Source: Actinomycetota bacterium (GTDB taxonomy: Bacteria > Actinomycetota > Acidimicrobiia > Acidimicrobiales > AC-9). From it: a DNA stretch of 64,000 nt. The stretch's first letter is position 1; the number at the start of each line of letters is the position of its first letter. The translations under genes were made by a program, and so were the position numbers. The notes under the pieces are model-generated. The model was given only the letters and a program-made list of their open reading frames with translations, had not been told where the DNA came from and searched no databases. The stretch covers positions 2,747-66,746 of the forward strand of contig VAWP01000098.1 of assembly GCA_005888295.1 (NCBI GenBank), given 5' to 3'. Of this stretch, positions 1,054-50,109 are shown piece by piece.

Positions 1054-1061
1054 GCTCGGAG

Positions 1062-1367
1062 TCAGCCCTTCAGGATGTGGAGATCGTCCGCCGTGGCGCC
1101 CTTGCGCCGGCGGAAGATGGCGACGATGATGCCCAGCCCGACGACGACCTCGGCCGCCGCCACCACCAGCACGAAGAAGACCAGGGATTGGCCGCCGATG
1201 TCGTTCAGCATGCGGGAGAAGGTGACGAGGGTCAGGTTGACGGCGTTGAGCATGAGCTCGACGCACATGAACATGACCAGCACGTTGCGTCGAAGGAGGA
1301 GCCCGACGCCGCCGATGGTGAACAGCACGGCCGCCAGCGTCAGGTAGTAGGGACCCCCGAGGCTCAC
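1062..1367 (-). CDS. nuoK: NADH-quinone oxidoreductase subunit K
   Basis: 101-aa ORF, three-TM protein with ...[17 protein letters not shown]...; position between nuoJ and nuoL; 4-nt overlap with nuoJ stop. Confidence 0.9.
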
Positions 1368-2053: not shown

Positions 2054-2727
2054 TAGCGGTACCTCCCCCCGTATCGGTGGGAGATGTCGGCCGAATTGAC
2101 GTCTCGGATGGAGATGTTGCCCGTCGCCTCGTCGTCGCGGTCGCCGACCTGGCCCGCCTCAGGAGTCCGGACGCCGTAGCCGAGCTCGCCGGACCACTGG
2201 ACCCGACCCTCGAAGGCGGCGTCGCCGTTGGGCGAGGTCGCCCGCATCCAGCCCGAGGTGTGGGCGTCGTCGCCGGAACGCCAGTCCTCCCACGGCAGCT
2301 GACGGGGGCGGCCCTCGTCGTCGACGACGAGCTCGTCCTTGGTGTAGATGGCGTCCTGGCGGTCCACGAAGGAGAACTCGAACAGCTTGCTCTCGGTGAT
2401 GGCCTCGGTCGGGCACGCCTCGACACACAGGTCGCAGTGGATGCAGCGCAGGTAGTTGATCTCGTACACGAACCCGAACCGCTCCCCCGGAGACACCGGG
2501 CTGTCAGGCGGGTTGTCGGCGCCCCGCACGTAGATGCAGCGGGCCGGGCAGACCCCGGCGCACAGCTCGCACCCGATGCACTTCTCCATGCCGTCCTCGT
2601 ACCGGCCCAGCACGTGGCGACCGTGGAAGCGGGGCGGCTTGAGCCGCTTCTCGTCGGGATAGCGGTGCGTCACCCGCGGCTCGAAGACCTGGCGGATGGT
2701 CACGCGGAAGCCGTCGAAGAACCCCAT
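2053..2727 (-). CDS. nuoI: NADH-quinone oxidoreductase subunit I (2x[4Fe-4S] ferredoxin type)
   Basis: Start at MGFFDGFRVTIRQ (ATGA overlap with nuoH stop); CIGCELCAGVCP and CIHCDLCVEACP cluster motifs; upstream part of the 314-aa ORF is read-through noise. Confidence 0.9.
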   Translation of the reverse strand: MGFFDGFRVTIRQVFEPRVTHRYPDEKRLKPPRFHGRHVLGRYEDGMEKCIGCELCAGVCPARCIYVRGADNPPDSPVSPGERFGFVYEINYLRCIHCDLCVEACPTEAITESKLFEFSFVDRQDAIYTKDELVVDDEGRPRQLPWEDWRSGDDAHTSGWMRATSPNGDAAFEGRVQWSGELGYGVRTPEAGQVGDRDDEATGNISIRDVNSADISHRYGGRYR

Positions 2728-3872: not shown

Positions 3873-6760
3873 CAGAGGGTCTCCAGGCGCACGTCGTTGA
3901 CGGTTCTGCCGCTGTCGATGAGGTCTTCGGCGCCGTCGTCGGCCAGGTCGAGGTCGATCACGGCGACACCCCTGGGGACGTCGGTGTCGGCGAGCACCCC
4001 CATCTCCAGGGCCTCGCGGCCGCGGACCCGCACCCGGCCGCCGGTCTGCACACCGAGGCGGTCGAGGTCGTAGGGGTTGGCCCGGAGACCCGGTGACGGA
4101 GCGAGCGGGGCCAGGGAGGGGCAGGCCTGGACCAGGGTCCCGTGGTCGTACAGGCGGTGACGGGCGACGAGGCGGAGGGCGTAGCTGTCGGGCGCGGGTA
4201 CCGACCGCGGCTTGGCCGGGGTGAACCGCACCAGCGCCGGCCGGTCGGCGGACGAAGGGACGTCGGGTGGGCCGACCTCCAGCGCGCCGGGTTGCGACGG
4301 TCCGGCGACCGGCAGTTGCGTCTCGGGCGGGCCTGCCCTCGGCGCCGGACCCGCGTCCGCCGGGACGTCGGACGGGATGCCGGGCACCTCGCCGTTGGCC
4401 GTCGGTGGTGCCCCGGCGATGTTGGGGATCCCCTGGCTCTCGATGGCGCCGATGCCCGGCGTGGCCATGGGGTCGATGGGACCGGGCGCCGGCTGGGTGG
4501 CGCCCGCACCGGTGTCGGTTGCACCGGCGTGCACGGGCGCCGCACCGCCGGGGCGGCCGGTACCGACGGCGAGGCGGACCGGCACCCTCGGCATCGGAGC
4601 CACGATCCCGTCGGCGGCGTGCGGGTCGCCGATCAGGCGGCGGGTGATGCCGGCGTGCGAGGGAGCCACCCGCTCGATCTCGTCCCAGACGGCGTCCACC
4701 GTGTCCATGCCGAGGTCGCCCCCGAGGCGGGCGGCGAGCTCGGCGGCGATCATCCAGTCGGGTCGCGTGACGCCAGGCCCGACGACCTTCTGGCCCAGGC
4801 GGCTGATGCGACCCTCGACGTTCGTCGTGGTGCCGGAACGTTCGGCGTACATGGCGGCGGGAAGGACGACGTCGGCCTGTCCGGAGGACTCGTTCAGGAA
4901 GGCGTCGACGGCGACGACGAAGGTGGCGCCCGCCATGCCTCGCTGGGCGAGCTGCCGGTCGGGGAAATCGGTGAGCGGGTCGGCGCCGAGGAGCACGAGC
5001 GCCTCGATGCGCTTCTCGGCGGCGGCCGAGAGCATCCCGGCGGTGTCCAACCCCCGCTCCTCGGGCACCGCCCCCCACGCCGCCGTGTACCACGCGCGCG
5101 CCTCGTCCAGGCCCACGCGGCCGGGCAGGATGCCGGGGGCGAGACCCATGTCGAGCGCACCGTGGACGTTCGACCGCCGCAGGGCGGGCAGGAAGCGGGC
5201 CTCCGGCCACGCACCGAACAGCACCGCCGCAGCCTCGTCGACCATGTCGTCGGCCTCGGCGACCGACGGACGGCCCAGGACCACGACGACGCCGTCGCCG
5301 TCGGCACCGGGGCCCTGGCCGTCACGACGATGAAGGATCGCCCGCGCCACATCCAGGGGCTGCTCACCGTCGCCCGCCGGCGCCGACTCTGTCTCCGGCG
5401 CCACGAGGGCACGGGCCAGCGCCGCCACCTCCCCGGGACCGTAGGTGAGCGATGCGCTGGCGTAGCGGGTCATGGCGGTGGGTACCGCCGTGAGCTCGAT
5501 CACGGGCACGCCGCGCTCGACTGCCGCCTCCCGCAGGCGGAGGAACAGCACCGGCAGCTCCTCGCGCAGGTCGGGCGCCAGCAGCACCAGGGCGTCGGCC
5601 GAGCAGGCCTGGTCGATCGTCGCCCTGGGCAGGCCCAGAACGACCTCGGCCGGCAGGCCGTCACCGAGCTGGGCGTCGACCGAATCGGTGCCCAGGACCC
5701 CCTTGGCCAGCTTGGCCCAGGCGTAGGCGTCCTCGTTGGGCAGCCGGGCGCCGCCGATGACGCCGACGGCAGAGGGCCCGCCCCGGTGCTTGACCCCGGC
5801 CAGCCCCTGGGCGGCCGCCGCCAGCGCGTCGTCCCAGGAGACCTCGACGAGCTCGTCGCCTCGGCGCACGAGAGGGTGGGTGACGCGGTCGTCACTGTTG
5901 ACCGCCTCGAAGTCGAAGCGGCCCTTGTCGCACAGCCACGTCTGGTTCACGGGATCGGAGTCCACACCGAGGTACCGCGTGAGCCGGTTGGAGGACGACT
6001 GCACGACCACCCGGCAGCCGACGGCACACGAGGTGCACGTGCTCTCGACCTGCTCGAGATCCCAGGGCCGCGCCCTGAACCGGTACGGCGCGGCGGTGAG
6101 GGCGCCGACCGGGCAGATCTGGACGGTGTTGCCGCTGAAGTACGAGGCGAAGGGATGGTCGGGGTACGTGTTCACCTCGAGCTGGTCGCCCCGCCCGATG
6201 AAGTTGATGAGAGGCTCGCCGGCGTGCTCGTCGGCGAAGCGTGTGCACCGGGCGCACTGGATGCAGCGCTCGCGGTCCAGGTCGACCAGTCCGCTGATGG
6301 GTATCGGCTTGGCGAAATGCCGCTTCTCCTCGACGAAGCGGCTCTCTCCGGGGCCGTAGGCGAGGGTCTGGTCCTGGAGAGGGCACTCCCCACCCTTGTC
6401 GCAGACGGGGCAGTCGAGGGGGTGGTTGATGAGGAGGAACTCGAGCACCCCGTCCTGGGCCTTCTTCACCTTGTCGGAGGTCGTGCGCACCTCCTGGCCG
6501 TCGGCCACGGCGACGAAGCAGGCGGGCTGGAGGGAGTAGCCGCGCGGCCCCCTGATCTCCACGAGGCACATGCGGCACATGCCCACCGGCTTCATCCGGG
6601 GGTGGTAGCAGAACCTCGGGATGTAGGTGCCCGCCCGCTCGGCGGCCGCGATGACCATCTCGCCCGGCCGGGCCTCGACCTGACGGCCGTCGACCACGAT
6701 GCTGAGGGTCTCCGTGTTGCCGGGCCGGCCTCCCGGGCCGGCCGTGGCGGTGTCAGCCAT
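3872..6760 (-). CDS. nuoG: NADH-quinone oxidoreductase subunit G (long form with Pro/Ala/Gly-rich insert before C-terminal domain)
   Basis: Start MADTATAG...; 2Fe-2S/4Fe-4S motifs RFCYHPRMKPVGMCRMCLVE, HPLDCPVCDKGGECPLQDQ, CIQCARCTRF; molybdopterin-oxidoreductase-like remainder. Confidence 0.9.
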   Translation of the reverse strand: MADTATAGPGGRPGNTETLSIVVDGRQVEARPGEMVIAAAERAGTYIPRFCYHPRMKPVGMCRMCLVEIRGPRGYSLQPACFVAVADGQEVRTTSDKVKKAQDGVLEFLLINHPLDCPVCDKGGECPLQDQTLAYGPGESRFVEEKRHFAKPIPISGLVDLDRERCIQCARCTRFADEHAGEPLINFIGRGDQLEVNTYPDHPFASYFSGNTVQICPVGALTAAPYRFRARPWDLEQVESTCTSCAVGCRVVVQSSSNRLTRYLGVDSDPVNQTWLCDKGRFDFEAVNSDDRVTHPLVRRGDELVEVSWDDALAAAAQGLAGVKHRGGPSAVGVIGGARLPNEDAYAWAKLAKGVLGTDSVDAQLGDGLPAEVVLGLPRATIDQACSADALVLLAPDLREELPVLFLRLREAAVERGVPVIELTAVPTAMTRYASASLTYGPGEVAALARALVAPETESAPAGDGEQPLDVARAILHRRDGQGPGADGDGVVVVLGRPSVAEADDMVDEAAAVLFGAWPEARFLPALRRSNVHGALDMGLAPGILPGRVGLDEARAWYTAAWGAVPEERGLDTAGMLSAAAEKRIEALVLLGADPLTDFPDRQLAQRGMAGATFVVAVDAFLNESSGQADVVLPAAMYAERSGTTTNVEGRISRLGQKVVGPGVTRPDWMIAAELAARLGGDLGMDTVDAVWDEIERVAPSHAGITRRLIGDPHAADGIVAPMPRVPVRLAVGTGRPGGAAPVHAGATDTGAGATQPAPGPIDPMATPGIGAIESQGIPNIAGAPPTANGEVPGIPSDVPADAGPAPRAGPPETQLPVAGPSQPGALEVGPPDVPSSADRPALVRFTPAKPRSVPAPDSYALRLVARHRLYDHGTLVQACPSLAPLAPSPGLRANPYDLDRLGVQTGGRVRVRGREALEMGVLADTDVPRGVAVIDLDLADDGAEDLIDSGRTVNDVRLETL

Positions 6761-8057
6761 ACGGACAGGCGCCTTCCTTGATGTGCACGAGGAACTCGTC
6801 CCGGAACATGCGGATGGCCCACACGATCGACGACGGGATCGAGGGCCCCAGCACGCAGATGGTGGTCTGCTGGGGCGGCCACGACAAACCGGGGGCGATG
6901 TTGTCGCACACGTCGAGGAGCAGGTCCAGGTCCTGCTCCCGGCCCGAGCCCTCCTCGATACGGCGGACCACCTTCTCGATCCAGCCCGCGCCCTCGCGGC
7001 AGGGGGTGCACTGGCCGCAGGACTCCCGGTAGAAGAAGCGCACGATGCGCCAGGCGGCGCGCACCACACAGGTCTGGTCGTCCATGACGACGACCGACCC
7101 GGAGCCGAGCATGGAGCCCGCCTTGCCCACGGCGTCCTGGTCGAGGGGCAGGTCGATCTGGTCGGGGCCGAACCAGGGGGCCGACACCCCGCCAGGGATG
7201 AAGGCCTTGAGCTCGCGACCATGGCGGATGCCGCCTCCCAGCACGGGGGCGAAGATGAGATCGCGGAAGGTCGTCTTGGCCATCTCCAGCTCGTAGTTCC
7301 CCGGCCGGCGGACGTGGCCCGACAGGGCGAACACCCGCGTCCCGGTCGAGCTGCCCTCGCCCAGTGCGGCGAATGCGTGCCCGCCGTGCTGCACGATCCA
7401 GGGCAGGTTGGCCATGGTCTCGGTGTTGTTGGCGATGGTCGGCTCCCCGTAGAGACCGATGGCGGCGGGAAAGTACGGCGGCTTGATCCGTGGGAAGGCC
7501 CGCTTGCCCTCGAGGCTCTCCAGCAGCCCGGTCTCCTCGCCGGCGATGTAGGCCCCTGCGCCCGGATGGACGACCACGTCGACGGAGAAACCCGACCCGA
7601 AGATGTCGCGGCCCACGGCGCCGTGCTGGTAGGCCTCGTTCAGGGCAGCCTGCATGCGCTCCAGCCCGAGGGCGAACTCACCCCGCACGAAGATGAAGGC
7701 CTGCGTCACCTGGTTGGCGTAGGCGGCGATGAGCGTGCCTTCGATGATCCCGTGCGGGTCACGCTCGATCAGCAGGTGGTCCTTGAAGGTGGCCGGCTCG
7801 CTCTCGTCACCGTTGACGACGAGGTAGCGCACCGGCGACGGGCGGAGCATCGACCACTTGCGTCCGGCCGGGAAGCCGGCACCCCCGCGCCCGAGCAGGC
7901 TGGCCGCGTTCACCTCCTCGGCGACCTGCTCCGGCTCCATGCGCAGAGCCCTGCGCAACCCGTCGTAGCCACCGGTCGCCAGGTACCGCTCGAGGGTGTG
8001 CGAGTCCCCGTGGCGCAGGCGGGCGGTGACGATCGGTGAGGCGTCTGTGAGGGCCAT
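6753..8057 (-). CDS. nuoF: NADH-quinone oxidoreductase subunit F
   Basis: Start [11 protein letters not shown] (ATGA overlap with nuoE stop); GRGGAGFPAGRKW, ...ESCGQCTPCREG... FMN/NADH and 4Fe-4S motifs. Confidence 0.9.
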   Translation of the reverse strand: MALTDASPIVTARLRHGDSHTLERYLATGGYDGLRRALRMEPEQVAEEVNAASLLGRGGAGFPAGRKWSMLRPSPVRYLVVNGDESEPATFKDHLLIERDPHGIIEGTLIAAYANQVTQAFIFVRGEFALGLERMQAALNEAYQHGAVGRDIFGSGFSVDVVVHPGAGAYIAGEETGLLESLEGKRAFPRIKPPYFPAAIGLYGEPTIANNTETMANLPWIVQHGGHAFAALGEGSSTGTRVFALSGHVRRPGNYELEMAKTTFRDLIFAPVLGGGIRHGRELKAFIPGGVSAPWFGPDQIDLPLDQDAVGKAGSMLGSGSVVVMDDQTCVVRAAWRIVRFFYRESCGQCTPCREGAGWIEKVVRRIEEGSGREQDLDLLLDVCDNIAPGLSWPPQQTTICVLGPSIPSSIVWAIRMFRDEFLVHIKEGACPYG

Positions 8058-8686
8058 CAGGACCTCTCGGCCTGGGCGGCCGCGGCGCGCTCCGCTCGGG
8101 CCCGGTCTGCCTCGGCCCGCTCGGCCCGGACCTGCTCGGCGGGCACGGCGAGCCCGCCCTGCCGGCGCACGCGCGACAGCACCCCGTGGTGCGGCACGTC
8201 GTCGTCGAGGCGGCCGGCGGCGAGATCCTCGACCAGGGTGTCGAAGCGCTCGTCGTCGACCGACCCGAAGAAGCGGTGGTTCACCTGAAGGCACGGCGCC
8301 CGGTCGCAGAAGGCGATGCACTCGGCTTCCTCGAGGCTGAACATCTGGTCGGGAGTGGTCGCCCCGACGCCGATGGCGAGCCGTTCCTCGGCGTGCTCGA
8401 GCAGCTCGTAGGCACCGTTCAGGAGGCAGGCGATGTTGGTGCACACCGACACCATGTAGCGGCCCACGGGCTCGGTGCGCAGCATCTCGTAGAAGCTGGC
8501 CGTGCCCAGGACCTCGGCGGGGGTGATGCCCATGAGCTCTGCGATGTGCTCCATGACCTCGGGACTGAGCCAGCCCTCCTCGGCCTGGGCCAGGTGGCAG
8601 ATGGGCACCAGCGCCGAGCGCGAGTCGGGGTACAGCGACATCAGCTCCCGGGCCTGGGCCACGGCCTCCGCGCTGAGGCGGGCCAT
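8057..8686 (-). CDS. nuoE: NADH-quinone oxidoreductase subunit E
   Basis: Start [34 protein letters not shown] (ATGA overlap with nuoD stop); CTNIAC...[10 protein letters not shown] 2Fe-2S motif. Confidence 0.9.
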
Positions 8687-9958
8687 CAGCGGTCCACCTC
8701 TCCCAAGATGGGGTCGATCGAGGAGATGATGGCGACGGCGTCGGCGACGAGGCCGCCGTGGACCATGGTCGCCATGCTCTGGAGGTTGTTGAACGACGGC
8801 GCCCGGATGTGGAGCCGGTAAGGCTTGGGGGAGCCGTCGGAGACCAGGTAGCAGCCGAGCTCGCCGCGGGGCGACTCGATGCCGACGTAGACCTCGCCCT
8901 CGGGCACCTTGAAGCCTTCGGTGAAGATCTTGAAGTGGTGGATGAGCGCTTCCATCGACTCGTCGATGCGAGCTCGCGGAGGCGGGGTGACCTTCTTGTC
9001 CTGCGTGCGGTAGTCGCCGGCCGGCATGCGGTTGACGATCTGGCGGACGATGCGGATCGATTCGCGGATCTCGTTCAGGCGCACGGCGTAGCGGTCGAAG
9101 CTGTCGCCGTAGGTCCCCACCACCACGTCGAAGTCGACCTGGTCGTAGAACAGGTACGGCATCGTCCGCCGCAGGTCCCACGGCACACCGGTGGACCGGA
9201 GGATGGGCCCGGTGGCCGAGGAGGCGATGGCCGCCTCGGCGGTGATCCTCCCGACGCCCTCGGTACGCTCCCGGAAGATGGGCTGGCCCGTGAAGAGGTC
9301 GTCGTACTCGGCCAGCCGGGGCGCGGATGTAGTTGTGGTTCATGCGCAGGCCGGTGACCTTCTCGAGGAAGTCGAGCACCACCTCGCGCTCGCGGAAGCC
9401 GTAGATCATCATCGACGTGGCTGCGAGGTCCATGCCGTTGGTGGCCATCCAGAGGAGGTGCGACGACATGCGGTTGAGCTCGACCATGAGCATCCGGATC
9501 CATGTCGCCCGCTCGGGTATGTCGACGCCCAGCAAGGCCTCGGTCGCCAGCGAGAAGACCAGCTCGTTGTGGAGCGGCGAGAGGTAGTCCATGCGGGTGA
9601 CATTGGTCGCGCCCTGGATGTAGGTGAGGTCCTCGCCCGTCTTCTCCATGCCGGTGTGGAGATAGCCGATGATCGGCTTGGCCCGCAGCACCGTCTCGCC
9701 GTCGAGCTCCATCATGATCCGGAGCACGCCGTGGGTCGACGGGTGCTGGGGACCCATGTTGATGATCATCGTCTCGTCTTCGCCGACCTCGATGTCGATG
9801 TCGCCGGCGTCGAGGGCCGTCGCCCCCTCGGCCGCTCGCACGATGCCGCCTTCCTCGATGCGCCGCTCGGCTGCAGTCGTTCCCTCGCGCGAGAGCATCT
9901 CCTGGGTCCCCTCCGAGGTCTCGGCGACCAGGCGGCTCTCGTCTTCGGTGTGGCTCAT
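8686..9958 (-). pseudogene. nuoD: NADH-quinone oxidoreductase subunit D, reading frame broken near 9316-9328 (apparent internal deletion plus frameshift)
   Basis: N-terminal frame: ...[25 protein letters not shown]...LRMNHNYIR then junk. A second frame resumes 13 nt later: [24 protein letters not shown]...VPWDLRR...[14 protein letters not shown]...[14 protein letters not shown]. Span length 1273 nt is not a multiple of 3. Confidence 0.8.
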
Positions 9959-9965
9959 CGTGGCC

Positions 9966-10415
9966 TCAACGGGGTCCGGGGGCTTCCTTGAACTGCACCG
10001 GCACCCGCCCGACGGCGTAGTCCTTGCGCAGCGGATGGCCCTCCCAGTCCTCCGGCATCAGGATCCGGGTCAGGTCGGGATGGCCGGCGAAGCGGATCCC
10101 GAACATGTCGAAGGTCTCGCGCTCGGGGGCCTCGACGCCGGGATAGAGATCGAACAGGGACGGGATCGTCGGATCGGACTCGGGCACCTGCACCCTGATG
10201 CGGATGCGCCGGCGCTGCTCCATCGAGACGAGGTTCACCACGACCTCGAAGCGCTCGGGATGGACCTCGGGCGGAAGGGTGCGCCCGCGATGGCTGAGGT
10301 AGTCGACTCCGCACACGTCGACGCACATCTCGAAACCCTCGTCCTTGAGCCCGGCAACGACCTGCAGATAGTCGTCACGAGACGGGTGGATGACCTCGCC
10401 GGTGGTCGCCGCCAT
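9966..10415 (-). CDS. nuoC: NADH-quinone oxidoreductase subunit C (short form, 149 aa)
   Basis: ...[14 protein letters not shown]...[36 protein letters not shown]; ATGA overlap with nuoB stop. Confidence 0.8.
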
Positions 10416-10960
10416 CAGCGGGGCGTCCCCACGTGCACCGGGACGGGCTGCTCGACCTGCAGCTCGGCGCCGGCGCCAGAGGCACGCCGGCGGCGGGTGA
10501 TCTCACCAGTGCGGATCTTCTCGTGCAGGGTGAGGATCGAGTGCAGCAACGTCTCCGGCGTGGGCGGGCACCCGGGGGTGTAGACGTCGACCGGAACAAC
10601 CTGATCGACGCCCTGGACGATGGCGTAGTTGTTGAACATCCCGCCGGTGGATGCGCACACGCCCATCGAGATCACCCACTTGGGCTCGGGCATCTGGTCG
10701 TAGACCTGGCGCAGCACGGGAGCCATCTTCTGCGAGACCCTGCCGGCGACGATCATGAGGTCGGCCTGCCGGGGCGAGGCCCGGAACACCTCCATGCCGA
10801 AACGGGCGAGGTCGTAGTCGGCCGCCCCGGCGGACATCATCTCGATGGCGCAGCAGGCGAGGCCGAAGGTGGCCGGCCACACGCTGTTGCGACGGGCCCA
10901 CTTCACCAGGTTCTCGAGGTTGCCGGTGAGGAAGTTGTGGTTGAGGCTCTCGAGCCCCAT
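10415..10960 (-). CDS. nuoB: NADH-quinone oxidoreductase subunit B
   Basis: Start [13 protein letters not shown]; ...[15 protein letters not shown]...[16 protein letters not shown]...[11 protein letters not shown]2-cluster motifs. Confidence 0.9.
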
Positions 10961-10962
10961 CG

Positions 10963-11412
10963 TCAGGCCGCCTCGCCGGTGTCCTGGGCGATGCGACGGA
11001 CCGTCGTGTCGGTCGTGCGCTCGGTCGTGGTGCCCGGCAGGGGGCGAAGGCGCTTGACGGGTCCCCAGTCGAGGGCGCCGTTGGCGATGAGGTAGATGAA
11101 CGAGAGCAGGACGGCGACGGCGAACAGGACCATCTCGACCAGACCGAACGTGTTCAGCTGGCGGAAGATGACCGCCCAGGGGTACAGGAAGATGATCTCG
11201 ATGTCGATGACGATGAAGACCATGGCGACGATGTAGAAGCGCACCGGGAAGCGCTCCGCTGGCTCCCGCTCGGGCACGATGCCGCACTCGTAGGGAGCCG
11301 CCTTGGCGCTCGTCGGCCGCTTGGGTCCCAGCAGCGTGGACGCGAGGAACGAGAGCGCAGCGAAGACAATCGAGAGGACGAACATGCAGACGATCGGCAG
11401 GTAGTTATCCAT
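10963..11412 (-). CDS. nuoA: NADH-quinone oxidoreductase subunit A
   Basis: 149-aa ORF, ...[44 protein letters not shown]...; first gene of the operon. Confidence 0.9.
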
Positions 11413-11543
11413 CGGCGGGCTGCCCCCCTGGTGGCGAGGCCGGTATCGTCTGACCTCGCCGCCTTTGTACCACGGCCCCTCGAAGGCGGTCAGATCGGCG
11501 CCGCCCCCGGGTGGCGGCGGGACGCCCCAGTAGAGTCGTCGCC

Positions 11544-12794
11544 ATGAGCACGTCCGTCGATCGCCGTCACGACGTCCTCGTCGTGGGGGCGGGTCCGTCG
11601 GGGTCGGCGTGCGCGTACTGGCTCGCCGATGCCGGCTACGACGTGACGCTGGTCGAGCGCAAGCGCTTCCCCAGAGAGAAGACGTGCGGGGACGGGCTCA
11701 CTCCTCGCGCCGTGCGCCAGCTCGAGGACATGGGCCTGGCCCAGGAGCTGGCCGGCTTCCATCGCTACGACGGGCTCCGGGCGATGGCCTTCGGTCGCCA
11801 GCTGGAGCTGGCCTGGCCCGACCACCCCGATCTCCCGGCCCACGGCTACGTGGTCACCCGGCGGGATCTCGACCACCTCGTGGCCGAGCGGGCCCAGAAG
11901 GCCGGCGCCGCGCTGCGGCAGGGCACGGAAGCGGCGGCGCCCGTCATCGAGGACGGCCGGGTTCGGGGAGCGGTGGTGGCGACCCGGGATGCGGGGCGGA
12001 CCGAGCAGATCAGGTCCCGCTACGTGGTCGTGTCCGACGGCGCCAACTCACGGTTCGGGCGGGCGCTGGGCACGAGCCGGGACCGTGGCCTGGCCCTCGG
12101 CATGGCGCTGCGCGGCTACTACCGCTCGCCCCGGCACGCCGAGCCCTGGATCGAGTCGCATCTCGACGTCCGCGATCGCACCGGCCAGGTCCTCCCCGGC
12201 TACGGCTGGATCTTCCCCCTGGGCGACGGCCGGGTGAACGTGGGCGTCGGGTTGCTCTCCACCTCCGACCGCTGGGCGGGTGTCAACACCACGGAGCTCA
12301 TGGCCGCGTTCGTCGACACGGCTCCGAGCTCCTGGGAGCTGTCGCGCGCCACCTCCTGCGGGGCGCCGACCGGCGGACGACTGCCGATGGGCCTGTCCGT
12401 TGGCCCTCGGGTCGGTCCGGGCCACCTGGTCGTGGGCGACGCGGCGGGATCGATCAACCCGTTCAACGGTGAGGGCATCGCCTACGCCTACGAGACGGGC
12501 CGCCTGGCCGCCGTGGCGGTCGGCGAGGCGCTCGCCAATGACGACGACGGCGCCCTCCGGGCCTACGAGTCGGCGCTCCAGCACCGCTACGGGCTCTACT
12601 ACCGGGTGGCGCAGGCGTTCGTGCAGCTCATCGGACGACCCCAGCTGATGCGGGCGCTGGTCGGCACCGGCATGCACAGCCGCACCCTGATGGAGTGGGT
12701 CCTGCGCATCATGGCCAACCTGTTGCGCCCCGACGAGATCGGGCCGGCCGAGGCCGCCTACCGGGCGGTGGCGGCGCTGGCGCGCCTGGCGTAG
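11544..12794 (+). CDS. Geranylgeranyl reductase family FAD-dependent oxidoreductase
   Basis: MSTSVDRRHDVLVVGAGPSGSACAYWLADAGYDVTLVERKRFPREKTCGDGLTPRAV... (GxGxxG plus the CGDGL motif typical of the family); ATG at 11544 preferred over upstream GTG 11511. Confidence 0.8.
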   Translation: MSTSVDRRHDVLVVGAGPSGSACAYWLADAGYDVTLVERKRFPREKTCGDGLTPRAVRQLEDMGLAQELAGFHRYDGLRAMAFGRQLELAWPDHPDLPAHGYVVTRRDLDHLVAERAQKAGAALRQGTEAAAPVIEDGRVRGAVVATRDAGRTEQIRSRYVVVSDGANSRFGRALGTSRDRGLALGMALRGYYRSPRHAEPWIESHLDVRDRTGQVLPGYGWIFPLGDGRVNVGVGLLSTSDRWAGVNTTELMAAFVDTAPSSWELSRATSCGAPTGGRLPMGLSVGPRVGPGHLVVGDAAGSINPFNGEGIAYAYETGRLAAVAVGEALANDDDGALRAYESALQHRYGLYYRVAQAFVQLIGRPQLMRALVGTGMHSRTLMEWVLRIMANLLRPDEIGPAEAAYRAVAALARLA

Positions 12795-12835
12795 CCAAGG
12801 AGCTCGCTCAGAAGGTCCGCCTCATCAGTCGCGTC

Positions 12836-12966
12836 GGTGAGGGAGCGGCACCCTCGGCTCGCCCTCAGTTCTTCGAAATTCGGGCCAGCCGATGCGCCGA
12901 GCCGGATCCCCCGCGACGAGCGGGGCCAGGGCCGCGCGCCGGCCACTTTCGACAACATGTGGAACC
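12836..12966. repeat. Modular intergenic repeat, copy A (modules 1-2-3)
   Basis: Module 1 12836-12852 GTGAGGGAGCGGCACCC is identical to 59052-59068. Module 2 12871-12920 matches 59314-59361 at about 39/50 positions. Module 3 12941-12966 matches 59210-59235 at 24/26. Confidence 0.5.
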
Positions 12967-12972
12967 GCGGCT

Positions 12973-14268
12973 CTACCGACGCGGACCGGTGGCCAGCTCG
13001 GCCGCGACCTCGGCCGCTGCCTCCAGCGTGAACGCCACGTCCTCGTCGGTGTGGGACAGGCTGGGGAACATGGCCTCGTAGGGCCCGGGGGCCAGGGCCA
13101 CGCCCCGAGCCAGCATGGCGTGGAAGAACCGGGCGTACTGCCCCCCGGCGGCCGCGGCCTGGGCGCCCACGTAGTCGGTCACGGGCTCGGCGCGGAAGAA
13201 CAGCCCCATCAGCGGCCCCACCACGGGGACCTGAGCGGCGACGCCAGCGTGACGGAACGCCTCGGCCAGGCCCGCCGACAAGCGCCCCACGCGCTCGGAC
13301 AGGACACGGTAGGCATCCGGCGTCAGCTGCTCCAGGGCGGCCACGCCCGCCGCCGTGGCCAGCGGGTTCCCGGCCAGGGTGCCCGCCTGGTACACGGGAC
13401 CGACGGGAGCGAGCACCTCCATGGTCGAACGCCGGCCTCCGAACGCCCCCACCGGCAGCCCGCCGCCGATCACCTTCCCGAAGCACCAGAGATCCGGGAC
13501 GACGCCGCTCGTCTCGGTCACGCCGCCAGGGGCCACCCGGAAGCCGGTGATGACCTCGTCGAAGATCAACAGCGCGCCGGCGGCGTCGCACGCCTGACGC
13601 AGTCCCTCGAGGAACCCTGGGCCGGGGGGGACGAGGCCCATGTTGGCGGCCACGGGCTCGACGATCACGCACGCCACGTCGGTCCCGACCTCCGGGACGC
13701 GGTTGTAGGGGGCGACGACGGTGTCGGCGACCGCGGCCGGCGGCACCCCGGCGGAGTCGGGCAGCCCCAGCGTCGCCACCCCGCTGCCGCCGCCGGCCAG
13801 GAGGCTGTCGCTGTGGCCGTGGTAGCAGCCGGCGAACTTGACCACCCGCGAGCGGCCGGTGGCTCCCCGCGCCACCCGCACCGCGCTCATGGCCGCCTCG
13901 GTGCCGCTCGAGGTGAGCCGGATCAGCTCACACCCCGGCACCCGGTCGCGGATGACCTCGGCCAGGACCACCTCTCCCTCGGTCGGCGCACCGTAGGAGG
14001 TGCCCCGGCCGGCCGCCCGCCGGACGGCGTCGACGATCGCGGGATGGGCGTGACCCAGGATGGAAGCTCCGTACGACTGGACGTAGTCGACGTAGCGACG
14101 GCCCTCGACGTCCCAGACGTAGGCGCCCTCGGCCCGCTCGACGAAGTAGGGCGCACCACCGACGGCCTTGAACGCCCGCACGGGCGAGTCGACCCCACCC
14201 GGCAGCACCCGGCAGGCCCGCTGGTAGAGCTCGGCGTTCGTCGTCGCCTCGGGGCCTGCCTCAATCAC
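12973..14268 (-). CDS. hemL: Glutamate-1-semialdehyde 2,1-aminomutase
   Basis: 431-aa ORF, ...VLPGGVDSPVRAFKAVGG...YGASILGHAHP...FDEVITGFRV...; adjacent to hemB. Confidence 0.9.
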   Translation of the reverse strand: MIEAGPEATTNAELYQRACRVLPGGVDSPVRAFKAVGGAPYFVERAEGAYVWDVEGRRYVDYVQSYGASILGHAHPAIVDAVRRAAGRGTSYGAPTEGEVVLAEVIRDRVPGCELIRLTSSGTEAAMSAVRVARGATGRSRVVKFAGCYHGHSDSLLAGGGSGVATLGLPDSAGVPPAAVADTVVAPYNRVPEVGTDVACVIVEPVAANMGLVPPGPGFLEGLRQACDAAGALLIFDEVITGFRVAPGGVTETSGVVPDLWCFGKVIGGGLPVGAFGGRRSTMEVLAPVGPVYQAGTLAGNPLATAAGVAALEQLTPDAYRVLSERVGRLSAGLAEAFRHAGVAAQVPVVGPLMGLFFRAEPVTDYVGAQAAAAGGQYARFFHAMLARGVALAPGPYEAMFPSLSHTDEDVAFTLEAAAEVAAELATGPRR

Positions 14269-15244
14269 CGAGCATCTCGGCCAGCTCGGGAGCGAAGTAG
14301 GTGAGGATCAGGTCGGCGCCGGCGCGCTTGATGGCGCCCACGTGCTCGAGGGCCACCGCGGCGCCGTCGATCCAGCCCCGCTCGCTCGCCGCCTTGACCA
14401 TGGCGTACTCACCGCTCACGTTGTAGGCGGCCACGGGGACGTCGAACCTGGCCCGCACGGCGGCGATCACGTCGAGGTAGGCGAGAGCGGGCTTGACCAT
14501 GACGATGTCGGCGCCCTCGGCCAGGTCGAGGCTCACCTCGCTGAGCGCCTCACGGCGGTTGGGCGGGTCCTGCTGGTAGCCGCGCCGGTCCCCACCGCCG
14601 GCGATCCTGACGTCGACCGCGTCGCGGAACGGTCCGTACAGGGCGGACGCGTACTTGGCCGCGTAGGCCAGGATGCCGACCTCCGCCCGACCGTCGTCGT
14701 CGAGCGCGGCGCGGATGGCCCCCACCTGGCCGTCCATCATCCCGCTCGGGGCCACCATGTCCGCGCCGGCGTCCGCCTGAGCCACGGCGACCCGTCCGTA
14801 GAGCTCGAGCGTGGCGTCGTTGTCCACGGTCCCGGACGCGGTGAGCACCCCGCAGTGCCCGTGGTCGGTGTACTCGTCGAGACACAGGTCAGCGACCAGC
14901 ACCATGGCGTCGCCCAGCTCGAGGCGCAGCTCGCGCAGCGCCACCTGGGTGACCCCGTCGGGGTTCCACGCCTCGGAGCCGAGGGGATCCTTGGCGGCAG
15001 GGAGGCCGAACAGGACGAGCGCCGGCACTCCGAGCGAGCTCAGGCGGCGGGCCTCCTTCACGAGCGAGGCGGTGGTGTGCTGAACCACGCCCGGCAGCGA
15101 CAGGACCGGCTGGGGCTCGTCGATGCCTTCGCGCACGAAGAGCGGCGCCACGAGATCGTCGACCGACACCCGCGTCTCGGCGACCATGCGCCGCAGGGCG
15201 GGCAGCCGCCGGAGCCTGCGCAGTCGCCGGGCGGGAAAGCTCAC
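14261..15244 (-). CDS. hemB: Porphobilinogen synthase (delta-aminolevulinate dehydratase)
   Basis: 327-aa ORF, RRLRRLPALRRMVAETRVSVDDLVAPLFVREG...DEYTDHGHCGVL...MVAPSGMMDGQV...MVKPALAYLD. Confidence 0.9.
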   Translation of the reverse strand: MSFPARRLRRLRRLPALRRMVAETRVSVDDLVAPLFVREGIDEPQPVLSLPGVVQHTTASLVKEARRLSSLGVPALVLFGLPAAKDPLGSEAWNPDGVTQVALRELRLELGDAMVLVADLCLDEYTDHGHCGVLTASGTVDNDATLELYGRVAVAQADAGADMVAPSGMMDGQVGAIRAALDDDGRAEVGILAYAAKYASALYGPFRDAVDVRIAGGGDRRGYQQDPPNRREALSEVSLDLAEGADIVMVKPALAYLDVIAAVRARFDVPVAAYNVSGEYAMVKAASERGWIDGAAVALEHVGAIKRAGADLILTYFAPELAEMLGD

Positions 15245-15253
15245 GCCTTCAGC

Positions 15254-20329: not shown

Positions 20330-21783
20330 CTAGTGCAACGCCCGGCGCAGGAGCTTGCCCGTGCGGCCGTGGGGAAGCGACGTGGCGAAGGTCACCTGGG
20401 TGGGGCACTTGTAGCGGGCCAGCCGCTCGGCGCAGTAGTCGATGACCTCGGAGGCGTCGAGGCGCGCGCCCGGCTCGAGGACGACGATGGCCTTGACGGT
20501 CTCGCCCGAGGACGGATGGGGCACACCCACGGCCGCCGCCTCGGCGATGGCGGGATGCCTCATGAGCGTCTCCTCGACCTCGGCCGGGTACACGTTGAAG
20601 CCGAGGACGAGGATCAGGTCCTTGGCCCGGTCGACGATGTGCAGGTAGCCGTCCTCGTCCGCCACGGCCACGTCCCCCGTTCGCAGCCACCCGTCGGGCG
20701 TGAGGACGCGGGCTGTGCTCGCCGGGTCGTTCCAGTACCCGGCGAACACGTTCGGTCCCTTCACCCAGATCTCGCCGGCGTCACCGAGGAGGGTCTCCTG
20801 GCCGTTGCTGTCGACCAGGCGAAGCTCCACGCCGGGCAACGGACCGCCGATGGCGCCGGGCCGGGGTCGTCCGAGCATCAGCGACGACGTCACGATCGGG
20901 GCCGCCTCGGTGAGCCCGTAACCCTCCCAGAGCGGCACACCGAAGCGATCCTCCATGGCCTGCCCCACCTCCGCAGGTAGGGGCGAGGCACCCGACACGG
21001 CCAGGCGCACCGACCGCAGCTCGTCTCCCTTGGCGCCATCGACCGCCGCCCAAGCTGCGTACATGTGTGGCGTGCCGGCCACGATTGTCACGCCGCGCTC
21101 GGCGATCAGGGACAAGGTGGCGTCGGCGTCGAAGCGCTCGACCAGCACCAGGCTCGCCCCGGCCAGCAGGGGAAGACCGAGGACGACGTTGAGCCCGAAG
21201 ATGTGGAAGAACGGGATGATGGCGATCCCGACGTCCTCCGCGTGCATCACCTGACCGGCGAACGCCTGCACCTGCTCCAGGTTGGCCACCAGGTTCCCGT
21301 GCGTCAGCATGGCCGGCTTGGGATCACCGCCGGTCCCGGCCGTGAACATGAGGACGGCGAGGTTGGCGTCGGCGCGGGCGACCGTGTCGGCAGGGGGCCC
21401 CTCGACGAGCTCCCCGTACTCCTCGGCCCCCTCGACGCGGCTGCCTTCTGCCGCCACGACCGAGACGAGCCCGACGGCGTTGCGGTCGAGCGCGGCGACG
21501 GCGTCCGCCCCTCGCGCTCGATGGCGGCGAGCGGGTAGGCGGGGTCGATCGGCACGGCGACGGCGCCGACGCCGAGGATGGCGAGGTAGGCCACGACGAA
21601 GGCGGGCGTGTTGGCACAGATGATGGCGACGCGGTCACCCGGGTGCACGCCCAGACGGGCCAGGCCTCCCCGCATCCCCGCCACCTGACGGCGGAGCTCG
21701 CCGTAGGTCGTGACGACACCTTCGTCGCTCAGCAGGGCCGGCGCGTCGGCGGGATGTGGATCGATGATGGTGGCCAGGTTCAC
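20330..21783 (-). pseudogene. AMP-dependent acyl-CoA synthetase/ligase (FadD-like), single-nt frameshift near 21505-21512
   Basis: N-terminal ORF 21304-21783 (...TYGELRRQVAGMRGGLARLGVHPGDRVAI...VPIDPAYPLAAIERE) and C-terminal ORF 20330-21457 (...LMFTAGTGGDPKPAMLTHGNL...WLRTGDVAV...GKLLRRAL) join across a C4/G4 run; span 1454 nt. Confidence 0.75.
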
Positions 21784-34498: not shown

Positions 34499-36744
34499 TC
34501 ACGCGACCACCTCGTGGCGGCCCTTGGGTACCGCCACGACGGCGGTACCGTCCGGCCCGACCGTGGCGGCGACGGTGCCGTCGAGCAGGACAACCGCGCC
34601 CGGGCGCAGGCTGCGGAGGGTGAGGCGGGTGGAGCCATCGGTGGCCACGTGGACGGCCCCGGCCTCACCCGGCAGGAAGCCGGCCCGCGCCACATCGATC
34701 GCCAGTGCCGCCGTGTTGCGCAGCCGCAGCCCGAGCTCGAGGTGGCGGCGAGGTGGCGAGCTGGTCGCCCACGTCTGCTCGGCCACCAGGCCGGGTGTGG
34801 GCTCGCCCTTCAGCTGCAGACCACCGTGGAGGTGGGCGACGATCGTCGGGTCCGGTCGAGCCAGCGAGCGGGCGTCGATCTCGGCCAGCACACCCGGGCC
34901 CGCGTCGCGGCCCTCCAGGTCCTGCACCCACCACACGCCGGCGGGCCCGATGCCGAGGTCGGCGCGGATGAGGGCGGGATACCAGGCGAAGGTGACGTGG
35001 CCGGGATCGGCCTGGCGCAGGTCCGTGCCCATGTGCGCCGCGGCGGACGAGAAGGCGTCCTGCACCACCCAGCCGATGTGGTCCTCCAGCGGGTAGAGCT
35101 CGAAGCGGTACCGATAGCCGAGACGGTCCAGCTCGACCACCTGCTCGAGGACCGACTCCACGGGGACGAACTCGTCGAGGGCGCCGTGGGCCACGTAGAA
35201 CGGGAGCCAACGGGCGTTGCCCAGGAGCCTGAACGTCTCCCCTTCGCGTGCGCAGTGGGAGTCGGGATCGAGCGTGCCGGGGATGTCGACGCCGGGTAGC
35301 AGGCGCACACCGCACGTGGGCGGGCCGGCCAGCACGACGGACTTGGAGAAGGCTTCGGGGTAGCCGAGGGCCAGCTTGTAGGCGCCGTAGCCGCCCATCG
35401 AGTAGCCGCCGACGACGGTGCGGTCCGGGTCGGTCTCGTAGGCGTCGGCGACCCGAGCCCACGTCTCCCAGACGTCGAGCTCGGCCTCGTCGAAGTACCA
35501 CCCCGTGGGCCCCCGGCCGAACGGCATGACACAGATCGAGGCGCGATCGTCGGCGGTCTGTTGGAGGAAGCGGGGATCCAGCGAGCCGAACTGATTGTGC
35601 TGCAGCCCGAGGGAGTGCAGCAGGAGGGTCAGCGGCGCCGGGCGGGCGGGATCGTACGTGCCGGGCACGTACACGGCGCAGGGCTGCACCCGTCCGAGGA
35701 AGAACGGCTCGGTATCGAAGACCGGGTGGGCACCGACGCCTTGGCCCAGGTCGAGGCTCGACACGAACCACCGGTTGGTGAGGCCGGTCGGGAGCGGCTC
35801 CGGGGTGGTCCGTCCCGCAGCCAGGTCGGACCAGTCGACGGTGAGGGCGAAGGCGGACACGTCTCCCTCGGTGAGGGCGGCGGCCTGGGCCTGGTCCATC
35901 CAGAAGTTGAGGTGCGGCGCTTCCTGCTCGTAGGTCCGGAAGAACACGTTGTAGACCGAGGGCTGGCCGGGGAGGGCGTGCTGGTCCTCGTCCACGGAGG
36001 CGAAGCCGTCGCCGGTGTCGGTGGCGAGGCCGGCAGCGAGACGCACCGTCCACGTCCCGGTGGGATCGAGGGCGGCGCGGGGAAGGCGCACGACGAACGA
36101 CCGTGCCGCCAGGTCCACGTGGTGGGCGCCCCCGAGCGAGGCGATGGTCTGCCGGTTGCCGGTCGCCAGCTCGACCAGCCACGCGCCGGTGCCAGAAACG
36201 ACCAGCAGGTGGTCCACGCCGGCGGCCCGGATGCCCGTGCCCGCCCCCCACTCGGTCACGTCGGTGCGACCCGGATCGACGCCGAGGGCCCAGGCGGCGA
36301 TCGGCACCGTCGGTTCGATCAGGGTGTTCCAGTCGACGCGCCACCAGGTGGAGGTCGCATCGAGGCCGACCGCGGCCCGGAAGAGGTCGGCCCCGTTGCC
36401 GGCCGCCGGGCCCTTTCGATACGTATAGGTGCCGCGCGGGATGGTCAGGCTGAGCGGCTCGAGGGTGACGTCGGGGATCCCCGTCGCACCGTGGTCGTCG
36501 TAGAGGAAGTCCGTCCAGTACGTGGCACCGGCGTCGAGCCGACCCGTGCCGCACGTCCGCGGGAACGACTCACCGAACGGCCACCCGACCGGGGGCCGAC
36601 GACCGGACGCTGGGCGGGAGGCGGGGCCGGCTCTGGTGGGCGGACCCGACCGAAGCCGCCCAGCACCTCGCCGACGAGCTCCATCGGCCAGCGCAGGATG
36701 CCGCCCGCCGAGCGGGCCAGCCGGCGCACCGAAGCCTCGTCCAT
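34499..36744 (-). pseudogene. Alpha/beta-hydrolase (esterase/S9-like) with large N-terminal beta-rich domain; probable frameshift at 36588-36600
   Basis: ORF 34499-36307 carries ...LLLHSLG...GGYSMGGYGAYKLAL.... The same frame stays open and protein-like upstream (GWPFGESFPRTCGTGRLDAGATYWTDFLYDDHGATGIPDVTLEPLSLTIPRGTYTYRKGP) but has no start codon. A start (ATG 36744) exists only in another frame, across a C5/G5 run. Confidence 0.55.
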
Positions 36745-37824: not shown

Positions 37825-39006
37825 GTGGAGCTCGTCGAGCAGTCCGAACTCGCAACGGCCGGCGCCCCTCGCGACGCTCGTGGCTCCGTGGGCGCCGAGG
37901 GTCCGCGCCGCGGTCGCCCACGTCTCCTGAGAGCTCCCGCCCCCCTCTCGTTCGTTGTGTTGCTCGTTCCCCTGGTGGTCGGTGGCGTCAAGTTGGCATT
38001 CACCCTCCATCAGCCGTTCATCCATTGGGGCGACGTCGCCATCATGGAGACAGCCATCAGAGACACCCTCGGCGGGCACCAGCTGTTGGGGCCGTACTCG
38101 CATTTCGGTTGGTTCCATCCTGGCCCCGCCTACTTCTACCTGGTCGCGCCTCTCTACTGGGCCCTGCACCAGAACGCACAGGCGCTCTTCCTCGGTGCCT
38201 TTCTCATCAACGCCTTGTGTGCCATCGCCGTCGTCGCCGTGATCCGCGCCCGGGCTGGTGAGTCGGCCGCTCGGTGGGGAGCTCTCGTGGTCGGTGCTCT
38301 CCTGTTCTTCGCCCACGCGCTCTTCTCGCTCTACAGCCCGTGGAACCCGGCCCTCCTCGCGCTGCCGATCCTGCTCATGATGGTTCTGGTCGCCGCGGCG
38401 GCGAACGGTTCCACGATCTCCCTGCTGTGGGCGGCCATCGTGGGCTCCTTCGTCGTCCAGACCGAGCTGGGAACCGCCCCTACCGCGCTCGCCGTTCTGG
38501 TCGTGGGCGCCGGGTTGTGGGGATGGGCGGCCTGGCGGAGGAGGGACGAGAAGGTAGCGACCGGCCGGACGCGCCGGCGCACCGTCCTGGCCGCGACCGG
38601 CGTGCTCCTCGGCCTCGTGTGGGTACCTTCCCTGATCCAGCAGACGACCCAGTCTCCGGGAAACATCCGCCAGATCGTCACCTTCTTCGAGCACCCGCCG
38701 ACAGATCAGGAGGCCGGGGGGACCCACACCCGCATGCAGGCCTTTCGGGGGGTTGCGTATTACGCCACCACGGTTCCACTGAAGTCCGAAGAGACTCCCT
38801 GCTGCGAGCCCAACCAGTTCAACGGCCCCGGATCCACGTACACGGGCCGGTACCTCGGCTTCGGGGTCGGCGTCCTGGTGGCGCTGGGCGTCGCCGTCGT
38901 GGGCTGGCGGCGTCGTGACCGGTTCGCCATGGCCCTGGGAGCCGTGTCGGTGGTGGCCGCCGGGTCGGCGGTCGTCGCCACCACGCAGGTCGTCGGCCCG
39001 GTGTAG
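37825..39006 (+). CDS. Polytopic membrane protein of unknown family (possible glycosyltransferase-like); may continue into 39084-39500
   Basis: Many predicted TM stretches; ...[49 protein letters not shown]...; ends inside a hydrophobic segment; GTG 37825 with GAGGA upstream. Confidence 0.5.
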
Positions 39007-47975: not shown

Positions 47976-50109
47976 GTTGAGGGCAGGAGATGTTCCCGCA
48001 CGGCCGTACCAGTAGGCCGTGGAGGAGTAGTTGCTGGGCGTGGTGTTCAACCCGCCATGCTGGATGCCGAAATTGATCGACGAGGAGAAGGGCACCCCGT
48101 TCGCCAACATCAACCGGTAGGCGTTGAGGTTGATCTGACAGCCTCCGTTGTTTTGTACCGCGGGAGCGCCGTTGAGGGGGTTGGAGAACGGGCCCTGGTT
48201 GAAGTACCAGCCGCCGTTGTAGAAGTCCTCGGTGCCGGTGCCGTTGAACTGGGGAGCTGGCGACCCGTCCCCGTAGGCCTGCTCGTTACCCTCCATGAAG
48301 CACTCGACGGGGGTGCCGGTCACGCGCCATCCCATCGTCTCCGATACCCCGACGAACTTCCCCCAGGCCCCACTCGACAGGAAGGGATAGTCCAGGTTCG
48401 ACGCTGTCGGGTTCTGGCCGTTGGCCGTGGCGTGGAAGTAGCCGTCCTGGCCCGACGAGCTCAGGGCCTGGCTCTCCCCCGAGACCGGGGCGGTGGTGAT
48501 GCGTGCCGTCCCCCCAAGCGTCTGCTGGGAGCCGTTGGAGAGGGCGACCGTGGCCTGCTGGGCGTAGGGCATGGGCCACCAGGCCGACAGCGTGCTGGTC
48601 TGAGGGTTGACCGCCACCATGAGGCCCTTCACCGAGGAGTTGCCCAGGCCCGAGCCGAAGAACTGCCCCAGGGGCGCGTCGACGGTCTGCTGGCCGTCGA
48701 AGGTGATTCGCAACCGCACGTTCTGGAGGATGTCGTCGGTGGCCGAGGTCGTGGGCGCCGCGGCCGACGAGGCCAGAGGGGTGACCTGATAGGAGAAGTT
48801 GCTCGCCGACGAGGGGCCGGTCGAAGCCACTTGGATGGACGACTGCCCCGATGTCGCCGAGCCCGGGAGGGTGACGGCCTGATCGGCCCAGTGGGTCTTC
48901 GAGGCCACCCCAGGGGGCGGCGATGGCAGGCTCGCCACCTTGGCCCCGCGGACGACGAGGTCGGCCCCCTCGGTGCCGGCTCCCGATTGGAGGTGGCGGG
49001 TCACCCGCACGCCGTTGTTGTTGGGGTTGATCGCCAGCCGCCGGGCTGAGTTGGGGGATGGTGAGCTGGAGGGCGTTGATTCGCGCCGGTCCCTGGAAGG
49101 TGCCGAGGGTGTCCGTGTTCCCAGGCGTGGCTGAGATCGTCGGCGTGGCGGTGGTCTGGCCCGACTGAGGGCCCTTGGGATCCGTCGTCCCCGCGGCCTC
49201 GAACTTGGCGACGACGTCTTGGGCAGCGTCTGCACGGTTGAAGGTGGAGACCCCGGTCGCGTCGGCGTAGCTCCGGTAGTCGACGTGGTAGTAGATCGGA
49301 TCGTTGGTGGTGGTGACCTGCATCGATGATTGGAACGACATCGGCACGTCGATGTAGACCCCGCCTGAGCTCTGCGATGCATTGGCCACGAGGGGGTACA
49401 CGAAGGGCGCCCCGAGGACACCGTTGACCACGCTTTGCTCGGGCGCATCGAGCACCGTCTGGCCGTCCAGCACGATCCTGATGTTGCCGGTCTGGGTGAC
49501 GTCACCGCCGTTGCTCGTGGTCCAGATGCCGTCTATCTCGCCCGGCCCGTTGTGCCGGGCCAAGATGGAGGACCCGTCGGGAGCTCGGCCAAGGGTGTGG
49601 CTGAAGTCGCCGTTCTGCCCACTGGGATCGGTGCTGGAGAACTGTTGGGTCTGTACCCCGATAGGAAGGTTCGGCAGCTGGTCCAGGTGGCGGTAGTTGT
49701 CCCACCCGACCGGTCCCTTGCTCGGGTCGGAGGTGCTCTGCGCCGGCACGGCCGCGGCCTGCACCGCGCTTGGGAGCCTCGCGTCACCCGCGCGGGCGCT
49801 CGCCGCTCCCGCCCAGGCGGAGACAGTGAAGGCCGTTAAAGTGGCGGCGACCACCGAGCGGCCGAGGCGCCGACGGCAGCTCAGCCAGCAGCGCCGTGCC
49901 TCGAGGCCTCGCGCCGACTCGGTCACTTCCCCCCCCATGCTTCGCTCTCCCCCTCAGCCCCCGAGTACGGGGTCCGCCCAAACATACCCGCTTCCCGATG
50001 GAAGAGGGCAACGATCTCCGTAGGTCTGACGGCGTTGATGGATCCCCTGGTACCTCAGGTCGCCCAGATCAAGGCGAAGGGCTGCGTGCCAATGCGCCCG
50101 CCCCGAGCG

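Follow-up and report, generated by a model that had tools for sequence, protein, structure and literature searches.

The locus described here raises the question of whether a soil Acidimicrobiales population has lost nuoD, a core gene of complex I (NDH-1), or whether the gene was damaged only in its assembled record. The window, which is the whole stretch of 64,000 nucleotides that was analyzed, carries a nuo operon in which the coding sequence of nuoD lacks an internal segment and changes frame. We examined the anatomy of this lesion, the conservation of the segment that is absent, the state of the same locus in near-identical assemblies, and the occurrence of similar lesions elsewhere in the window.

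The nuoD gene and its operon in the window

The nuoD coding sequence runs on the minus strand from the ATG at 9958 to the stop at 8686 (TGA, 8688-8686) and is split over 2 reading frames. The following features define the split.

9323-9958, minus strand: 5' part of nuoD, codons 1-212, from the ATG to CGC (R212, 9325-9323), ending in NHNYIR (translation)
9322..9323, minus strand: nuoD deletion junction, 71 nt gone, with 1 nt of ambiguity or microhomology (DNA alignments with L001, L002, L003, and L004; exact prefix/suffix analysis)
8686-9321, minus strand: 3' part of nuoD, in the frame one base later, PRLAEYDD...ILGEVDR followed by TGA (translation)
8057-9958, minus strand: aberrant 633-aa open frame, 212 NuoD residues and then an Arg/Pro-rich out-of-frame stretch across all of nuoE (open reading frame list, translation)

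The 5' part was 96% identical to the closest intact homologue (P0001, 447 aa) in the alignment, as was the protein of the whole gene outside the gap, and the 3' part corresponded to residues 237-447 of the intact protein. The 71 nt absent from the window read CCCGGGCGGCGTGGCCGCGGACCTCCCCGACGGCTGGGAGGACGACGTCGAGGCCATCTGCCAGGCCATCC in the near-identical contig L003 (positions 2789-2859), where they code for PGGVAADLPDGWEDDVEAICQAIP, and the loss amounts to 24 codons (PGGVAADLPDGW.DDVEAICQAIP). Because 71 equals 3 x 23 + 2, the reading frame is shifted. The preliminary description of this DNA had put the loss at about 2 dozen conserved codons, or some 70 nt, with a net frameshift; measurement bears out both points, giving 24 residues and exactly 71 nt, with the 2 halves read in different frames and a length that is not a multiple of three.

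The Complex1_49kDa profile of Pfam (PF00346) matched the window gene in 2 pieces, one per frame, at profile positions 1-36 and 62-271; the 25 profile positions between them had no match, and the second piece had an E value of 3e-91. As a single ORF, the gene failed the end-to-end match to its family profiles (PF00346, NF004739/TIGR01962), and the segment missing from it is the NYIR-PGGV..DLP...P.R..EY region of NuoD. According to the open reading frame list, the first start codon in the C-terminal frame occurs only at 9186, 45 codons in. No record of the 633-aa read-through ORF was found in the gene calls of public assemblies.

The position of nuoD is the regular one, between nuoC and nuoE, in a Pfam-supported nuoA-nuoL order that is collinear with the near-identical contigs L003 and L004. 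The coordinates below are taken from the gene calls of L003 and L004 for nuoA to nuoC, where neither contig has indels relative to the window, and from the gene calls of L003 mapped to the window for nuoE to nuoL.

10963-11412, minus strand: nuoA, intact
10415-10960, minus strand: nuoB, intact
9966-10415, minus strand: nuoC, intact
8057-8686, minus strand: nuoE, intact
6753-8057, minus strand: nuoF, intact
3872-6760, minus strand: nuoG, intact
2727-3872, minus strand: nuoH, intact
2053-2727, minus strand: nuoI, intact
1364-2053, minus strand: nuoJ, intact
1062-1367, minus strand: nuoK, intact
1-1053, minus strand: nuoL, cut by the window end

Over 9.3 kb, 17 substitutions and zero indels beyond the junction separated the window from L003. 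The other nuo genes had also been called intact and translationally coupled, and rightly so, with nuoA-nuoC and nuoE-nuoL differing from L003 by substitutions only and their stop/start overlaps preserved. The nuo operon of the window is canonical and reflects ordinary biology.

Divergent from nuoA lies a gene of the geranylgeranyl reductase family (11511-12794, plus strand), whose product fell short of the MenJ menaquinone reductase model, with 330 bits against a cut-off of 700. We considered this FAD protein upstream of nuoA as a candidate NDH-2 and rejected it, given its MenJ-like membership of the geranylgeranyl reductase family. We noticed neither a second nuoD nor an NDH-2 among the window ORFs that we looked at, which were a part of the whole set. 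Genes of heme biosynthesis (hemC, hemD/cobA, hemB, and hemL) were placed at 12973-17679 by collinearity with L004.

Conservation of the missing segment and its presence in near-identical assemblies

With the joined nuoD halves as a query, thousands of NuoD proteins were matched, the closest of them 436-448 aa long. In all 12 of the close homologues compared (436-463 aa), YIR and PRLAEY were separated by 24 residues (PGGVAADLPDGWQDDVEAICQAIP or a close variant), and outside the gap these proteins were 78-96% identical to the window. The DNA of the 2 closest homologues (L001 and L002, ~92% identical) contained the 71 nt in both cases. Further, a query of 62-63 aa over the nuoD site aligned without a gap and in one frame in 80 of 80 related GTDB genomes, which are species representatives and all Acidimicrobiales/Actinomycetota metagenome-assembled genomes; the closest representative (L010, MAG MFD01872.bin.2.262) had 84-90% DNA identity and belongs to a different species. 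Orthologues sharing the short junction, which the preliminary description had named as one observation that would speak against a lesion, were found neither among the 12 homologues nor among the 80 genomes.

The segment was likewise gapless against Mycobacterium smegmatis NuoD (8e9g chain D) and Thermus thermophilus Nqo4 (at about residues 175-198), and 52 solved complex I chains, from bacteria to mammals, matched intact NuoD. Set beside the intact NuoD/Nqo4/49-kDa subunit (8e9g chain D, 4hea chain 4), both window halves are typical NuoD, whereas the equivalent of Nqo4 ~175-198 (PGGLAADLPDDAITQVRRLVEILP in M. smegmatis NuoD) is absent and the sequence that follows is out of frame. Among the 24 residues lost is the PGGV..DLP block, which is almost invariant.

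These comparisons bear on the idea that nuoD is functional as it stands, by a programmed +1 frameshift, as a split NuoD of 2 polypeptides, or as a naturally short variant. Programmed ribosomal frameshifting is known from prfB (+1) and dnaX (-1), where the sites are conserved among orthologues and coding sequence is not lost. The window nuoD resembles such genes in being read in 2 frames, both of its halves are well conserved, and the frame changes by a single base. It differs from them in that 24 conserved codons, with the nearly invariant block, are gone and that neither the junction nor the 2-frame layout occurs in any orthologue, the homologues and all 80 related genomes encoding NuoD in one frame. 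The late start codon of the C-terminal frame and the like lesions in 4 unrelated genes of the window, described below, also argue against a functional gene. Since the segment is gapless in 80 of 80 genomes and in the complex I structures, a short form or a programmed frameshift is not credible, and we put the probability of a functional gene of any of these kinds close to negligible.

At the level of the population, a protein identical to the window NuoC was encoded on 7 public contigs. The contig L003 (ENA ERZ27293244, k141_6871141, a MEGAHIT-style name, 16.7 kb) was 99.6-99.8% identical to window positions 37-12110, on both sides of the junction. It holds the 71 nt and a 447-aa NuoD, and its sole indel relative to the window is the nuoD junction. 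Against NF004739, this NuoD scored 555 bits where 360 are required, its match covering positions 2-384 of 384, and it passes the NCBIfam equivalog cut-offs. A second contig, L004 (ERZ28573624, CRIT18-1 scaffold_5360), was 99.93% identical to window 9323-17724 and includes the missing nuoD segment. Independent assemblies of the same population are, in these 2 cases, free of the nuoD lesion. At precisely the nuoD junction (L004 8585/8586; window 9323), L004 also passes to another strain, its identity to the window falling from 99.9% to 91%, which suggests that this is a point where assemblies of the population break. The junction itself, searched as 36-nt and 21-nt patterns, had no match in JGI metagenome contigs.

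A small frameshift of independent origin was seen in another contig of the same population, L006 (WNEP01084122.1, GCA_009771695.1), which at position 977 (window 9823) has one G fewer than the run of 5 G in the window. The missing G lies in the N-terminal region of nuoD and splits the nuoD call of that contig.

Further private deletions and their origin

We scanned the window for frame switches by Viterbi segmentation on codon-position G+C. The scan recovered the nuoD switch at ~9316, plus other same-strand switches. Private lesions were counted over 39,481 nt of the window that could be set against independent metagenome contigs 97.9-100% identical to it (cut-off >=97%), the contigs spanning lesion sites being 99.3-100% identical. 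Window positions 24.4-35.0 kb and most of 50-64 kb fell outside this comparison because exact-protein look-ups for 24298-25494 and 26724-27599 returned nothing. Within these ~39.5 kb we identified 5 private deletions, about one per ~8 kb, all of which shift the frame and hit separate, unrelated genes. Apart from nuoD, these were as follows.

21510..21511, minus strand: second lesion, 43 nt gone from an acyl-CoA synthetase gene (about 20333-21783), with a frame shift (DNA of L090)
36593..36594, minus strand: third lesion, in an esterase-like gene (756-761 aa, about 34499-36729) close to its 5' end, 40 nt gone relative to L091 and 55 nt relative to L092, with a frame shift
39005..39006, plus strand: fourth lesion, 55 nt gone relative to L092 from a 576-aa membrane-protein gene without a family match (37825-39500)
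49030..49036, minus strand: fifth lesion, in a large DUF2961/fn3 gene, where the 7-nt filler TGGCGAT stands in place of 72 nt (net -65 nt)

The long-chain acyl-CoA synthetase lost 14 residues (LRVIGPRVAVVGRA) and is split at ~21506, with one frame covering 8-86 of the PF00501 profile and the other 123-384; its intact counterpart on L090 (P0121, 498 aa) was 100% identical to the window protein beyond the 14-aa gap. The 576-aa gene is broken in the window into ORFs of 431 and 138 aa, and the 2 window frames of the DUF2961/fn3 gene form a single continuous ORF in L091. The contigs that revealed lesions 3 to 5 (L091, L092, and L093) were 99.7-100% identical to the window. In L091, like L004 a scaffold from the CRIT18-1 assemblies, the 39005 site coincides with an AT-rich chimeric tip and 10 N (L091 about 11025-11172), and next to the 36593 site a 15-nt indel separates L091 from L092. 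In total, 3 of the 5 lesion sites coincide with a strain switch, an N-gap or chimeric tip, or indel variation in sister assemblies. The preliminary description had implied that the nuoD lesion was singular, and this implication falls: at least 4 more private, out-of-frame losses of 40-72 nt stand in the same window, with near-identical assemblies intact, which points to the assembly artefact that the same description had given as its alternative.

Several other candidates from the scan and the contig comparison were discarded. The frame switches at 22696, 29118, 51817, and 60433/60673 are ordinary gene boundaries by Pfam. A 100-nt difference at 46517 is merely an N-gap in L091 (about 3405-3504), inside tandem repeats. 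At 21830-21841, a difference of 12 nt reflects an in-frame variant in L090, as L095 matches the window there at 100%. This last difference is a length polymorphism near the 3' end of a SAM hydroxide adenosyltransferase (SAM_HAT) gene, with the 12 nt present in the window and L095 and lacking in L090.

Every lesion was a loss from the window, in the size class of 40-72 nt. By exact prefix/suffix comparison, microhomology at the junctions was 1, 1, 0, and 0 nt, plus the one 7-nt filler, which makes the joins blunt in effect. Indels of 1-3 nt were absent from the 39.5 kb compared with near-identical contigs, and no premature-stop substitutions were noticed in the compared sequence. Relative to near-identical strains, 80 substitutions were synonymous and 34 non-synonymous, an excess that indicates genes under purifying selection. 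The lesions fall on essential and non-essential genes without distinction. The lesions do not behave as gene decay, with neither relaxed selection nor a mixed spectrum of inactivating mutations. That all 5 lengths are non-multiples of three is weakly unusual, at (2/3)^5 ~ 0.13.

We asked whether this anatomy fits replication slippage on short direct repeats or the excision of a hairpin, events that could take place in vivo or while a library is amplified. Imperfect direct repeats of 5-7 nt lie near both ends of 2 deleted segments (CATCC...CATCC, 72 nt apart, in nuoD, and TCGAGCG...TCGAGCG in the synthetase gene). The break points, however, are 1-4 nt off the repeats, microhomology of 0-1 nt is about what chance gives in DNA of 70% G+C, as in the window, and slippage on CATCC would yield an in-frame loss of 72 nt rather than the 71 seen. 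Hairpin excision meets the further objection that the 5 intact segments with their flanks folded no better than shuffled sequences (z 0 to -1.3). We regard either route as extremely unlikely.

A genuine and very recent 71-nt deletion, which would make nuoD a pseudogene in the strain or in a subpopulation variant followed by the assembler, deserves more weight. The deletion is unambiguous in the sequence, the base-level accuracy of the contig is otherwise 99.7-100%, and small indels are nil over 39 kb. Short-read assemblers usually need some read support for a junction, and those of the De Bruijn type do not as a rule produce a blunt deletion that no read supports. Non-homologous end joining is known in Actinobacteria, and the joins with 0-1 nt of microhomology, together with the filler at the fifth lesion, resemble its products and would fit double-strand-break repair of the Ku/LigD type. 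If the deletion were real, ribosomes starting at the nuoD ATG would translate 212 NuoD residues and then 421 out-of-frame codons to 8057, the C-terminal 211 NuoD residues would be gone, and the stop-start coupling of nuoD/nuoE (8686) and nuoE/nuoF (8057) would be disturbed. NuoD would be abolished, probably along with downstream translational coupling, and complex I would be lost.

Against a real deletion stands, above all, the company that it keeps. Five such lesions per 40 kb correspond to ~13% of genes inactivated at 0-0.3% divergence from intact strains, and a knock-out on this scale without small frameshifts or stops is biologically implausible. The genes bear the mark of purifying selection, the lesions come without accompanying 1-nt frameshifts and with no stop-codon lesions seen, and the remaining nuo operon is without any decay. 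The nuoD junction was missing from the JGI contigs and its ORF from public gene calls, and lesion sites coincide with break points of sister assemblies. The nuo operon of Mycobacterium leprae has reportedly been lost in a decaying genome, and decaying genomes carry many stop codons and 1-nt frameshifts after long relaxed selection. Like genuine nuo pseudogenes, the window has a lesion that would abolish the function of a complex I core gene, but it differs from them in having lesions of one unusual size class, near-identical strains that are intact, and none of the marks of decay. On balance, a real nuoD deletion appears unlikely, although it is the alternative to be taken most seriously. For all 5 lesions to be real, a free-living soil Acidimicrobiales would have to be at the start of massive gene inactivation by blunt deletions of the end-joining type, losing complex I and more while sister strains 99.8-100% identical to it stay intact. 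This would imply heavy double-strand breakage (e.g., by desiccation or radiation) and mutagenic end joining in an organism nevertheless abundant enough to be assembled, and we consider it very unlikely.

The 71-nt gap in nuoD instead probably arose by error in a metagenome-assembled genome, whether in local assembly, in the joining of scaffolds, or in the consensus. The nuoD lesion is best read in this way because it is one of at least 5 similar gene-breaking gaps that are missing from near-identical, independent assemblies; likewise, the lack of 1-3-nt indels, the restriction to losses, and the blunt junctions point to a technical error spectrum. A technical cause is the most likely one, as several lesions of the same type occur in unrelated genes of one contig, at sites of strain variation or joins. 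In a soil metagenome-assembled Acidimicrobiales genome such as this one, trouble would arise where strains are heterogeneous or the graph is poorly supported, and the assembler, the scaffolder, or a gap-closing or consensus step may then have joined the 2 flanks directly, with the loss of 40-72 nt. Candidate steps include a contig join, a stripped N-gap, or a gap in a long-read consensus left after short-read polishing.

That metagenome-assembled genomes contain local assembly errors which damage protein-coding genes has been documented (Chen et al. 2020, Genome Res, PMC7111523), and the criterion for this class is that not even one perfectly matching read lies over the site. The window resembles these errors (the ra2.py class) in its isolated wrong consensus within accurate sequence, its truncated or frameshifted genes, and the clustering of lesions at strain differences or joins, with N-gaps and chimeric tips in sister scaffolds at the same places. 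It differs in that all of its lesions are losses of 40-72 nt, and in their density, which speaks against an artefact: 5 in ~40 kb is far denser than the published example of 13 errors per 1.13 Mb (PMC7111523). Nor does an artefact specifically predict that all 5 lengths are out of frame.

Consequences for the record and other features of the window

Judged from the assembled sequences, the organism most probably has an ordinary intact NuoD of 447 aa and a working NDH-1 of 14 subunits. Taken at face value, the record would instead describe an Acidimicrobiales population without NDH-1, with nuoD annotated as a pseudogene or as 2 NuoD fragments, and would feed wrong inferences on respiration into databases. 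The series of private, mid-size deletions, in at least 5 genes within 40 kb, flags the whole contig for curation at the read level. Exact repairs are known from the sister contigs, namely 71, 43, 40/55, 55, and 72 nt for lesions 1 to 5. Errors of this kind are unlikely to be flagged by metrics of single-base accuracy or by marker-gene checks of completeness.

We also noted several features of the window in their own right. ARAGORN identified no tRNA or tmRNA genes, and no Rfam family reached its gathering threshold, in the whole 64 kb. Stretches of 350-890 nt without a clear coding-frame signal were present, e.g., at 52207-53095, 53549-54421, and 55508-56245. Three tandem paralogues of 409-453 aa with ~67% DNA identity (~39814-43750, plus strand) adjoin the split 576-aa gene, and 2 of the 3 had weak matches to Mannosyl_trans2 (PF04188). 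The large DUF2961/fn3/FG-GAP-like gene (46146-49505 and further) contains in its 3' part a tandem repeat with a unit of 156 nt, present in ~3.8 copies with 75% matches at 46148-46733, where the sister scaffold has its N-gap. Two probable cell-wall proteins (50110-51933 and 54277-55884, minus strand) have 5 LGFP repeats each, one together with an Rv2525c-like glycoside-hydrolase-like domain and the other with a Peptidase_M23 domain. At the DNA level, the LGFP repeats appear as 165-nt tandem repeats at 50206-50874 and 54451-55009.
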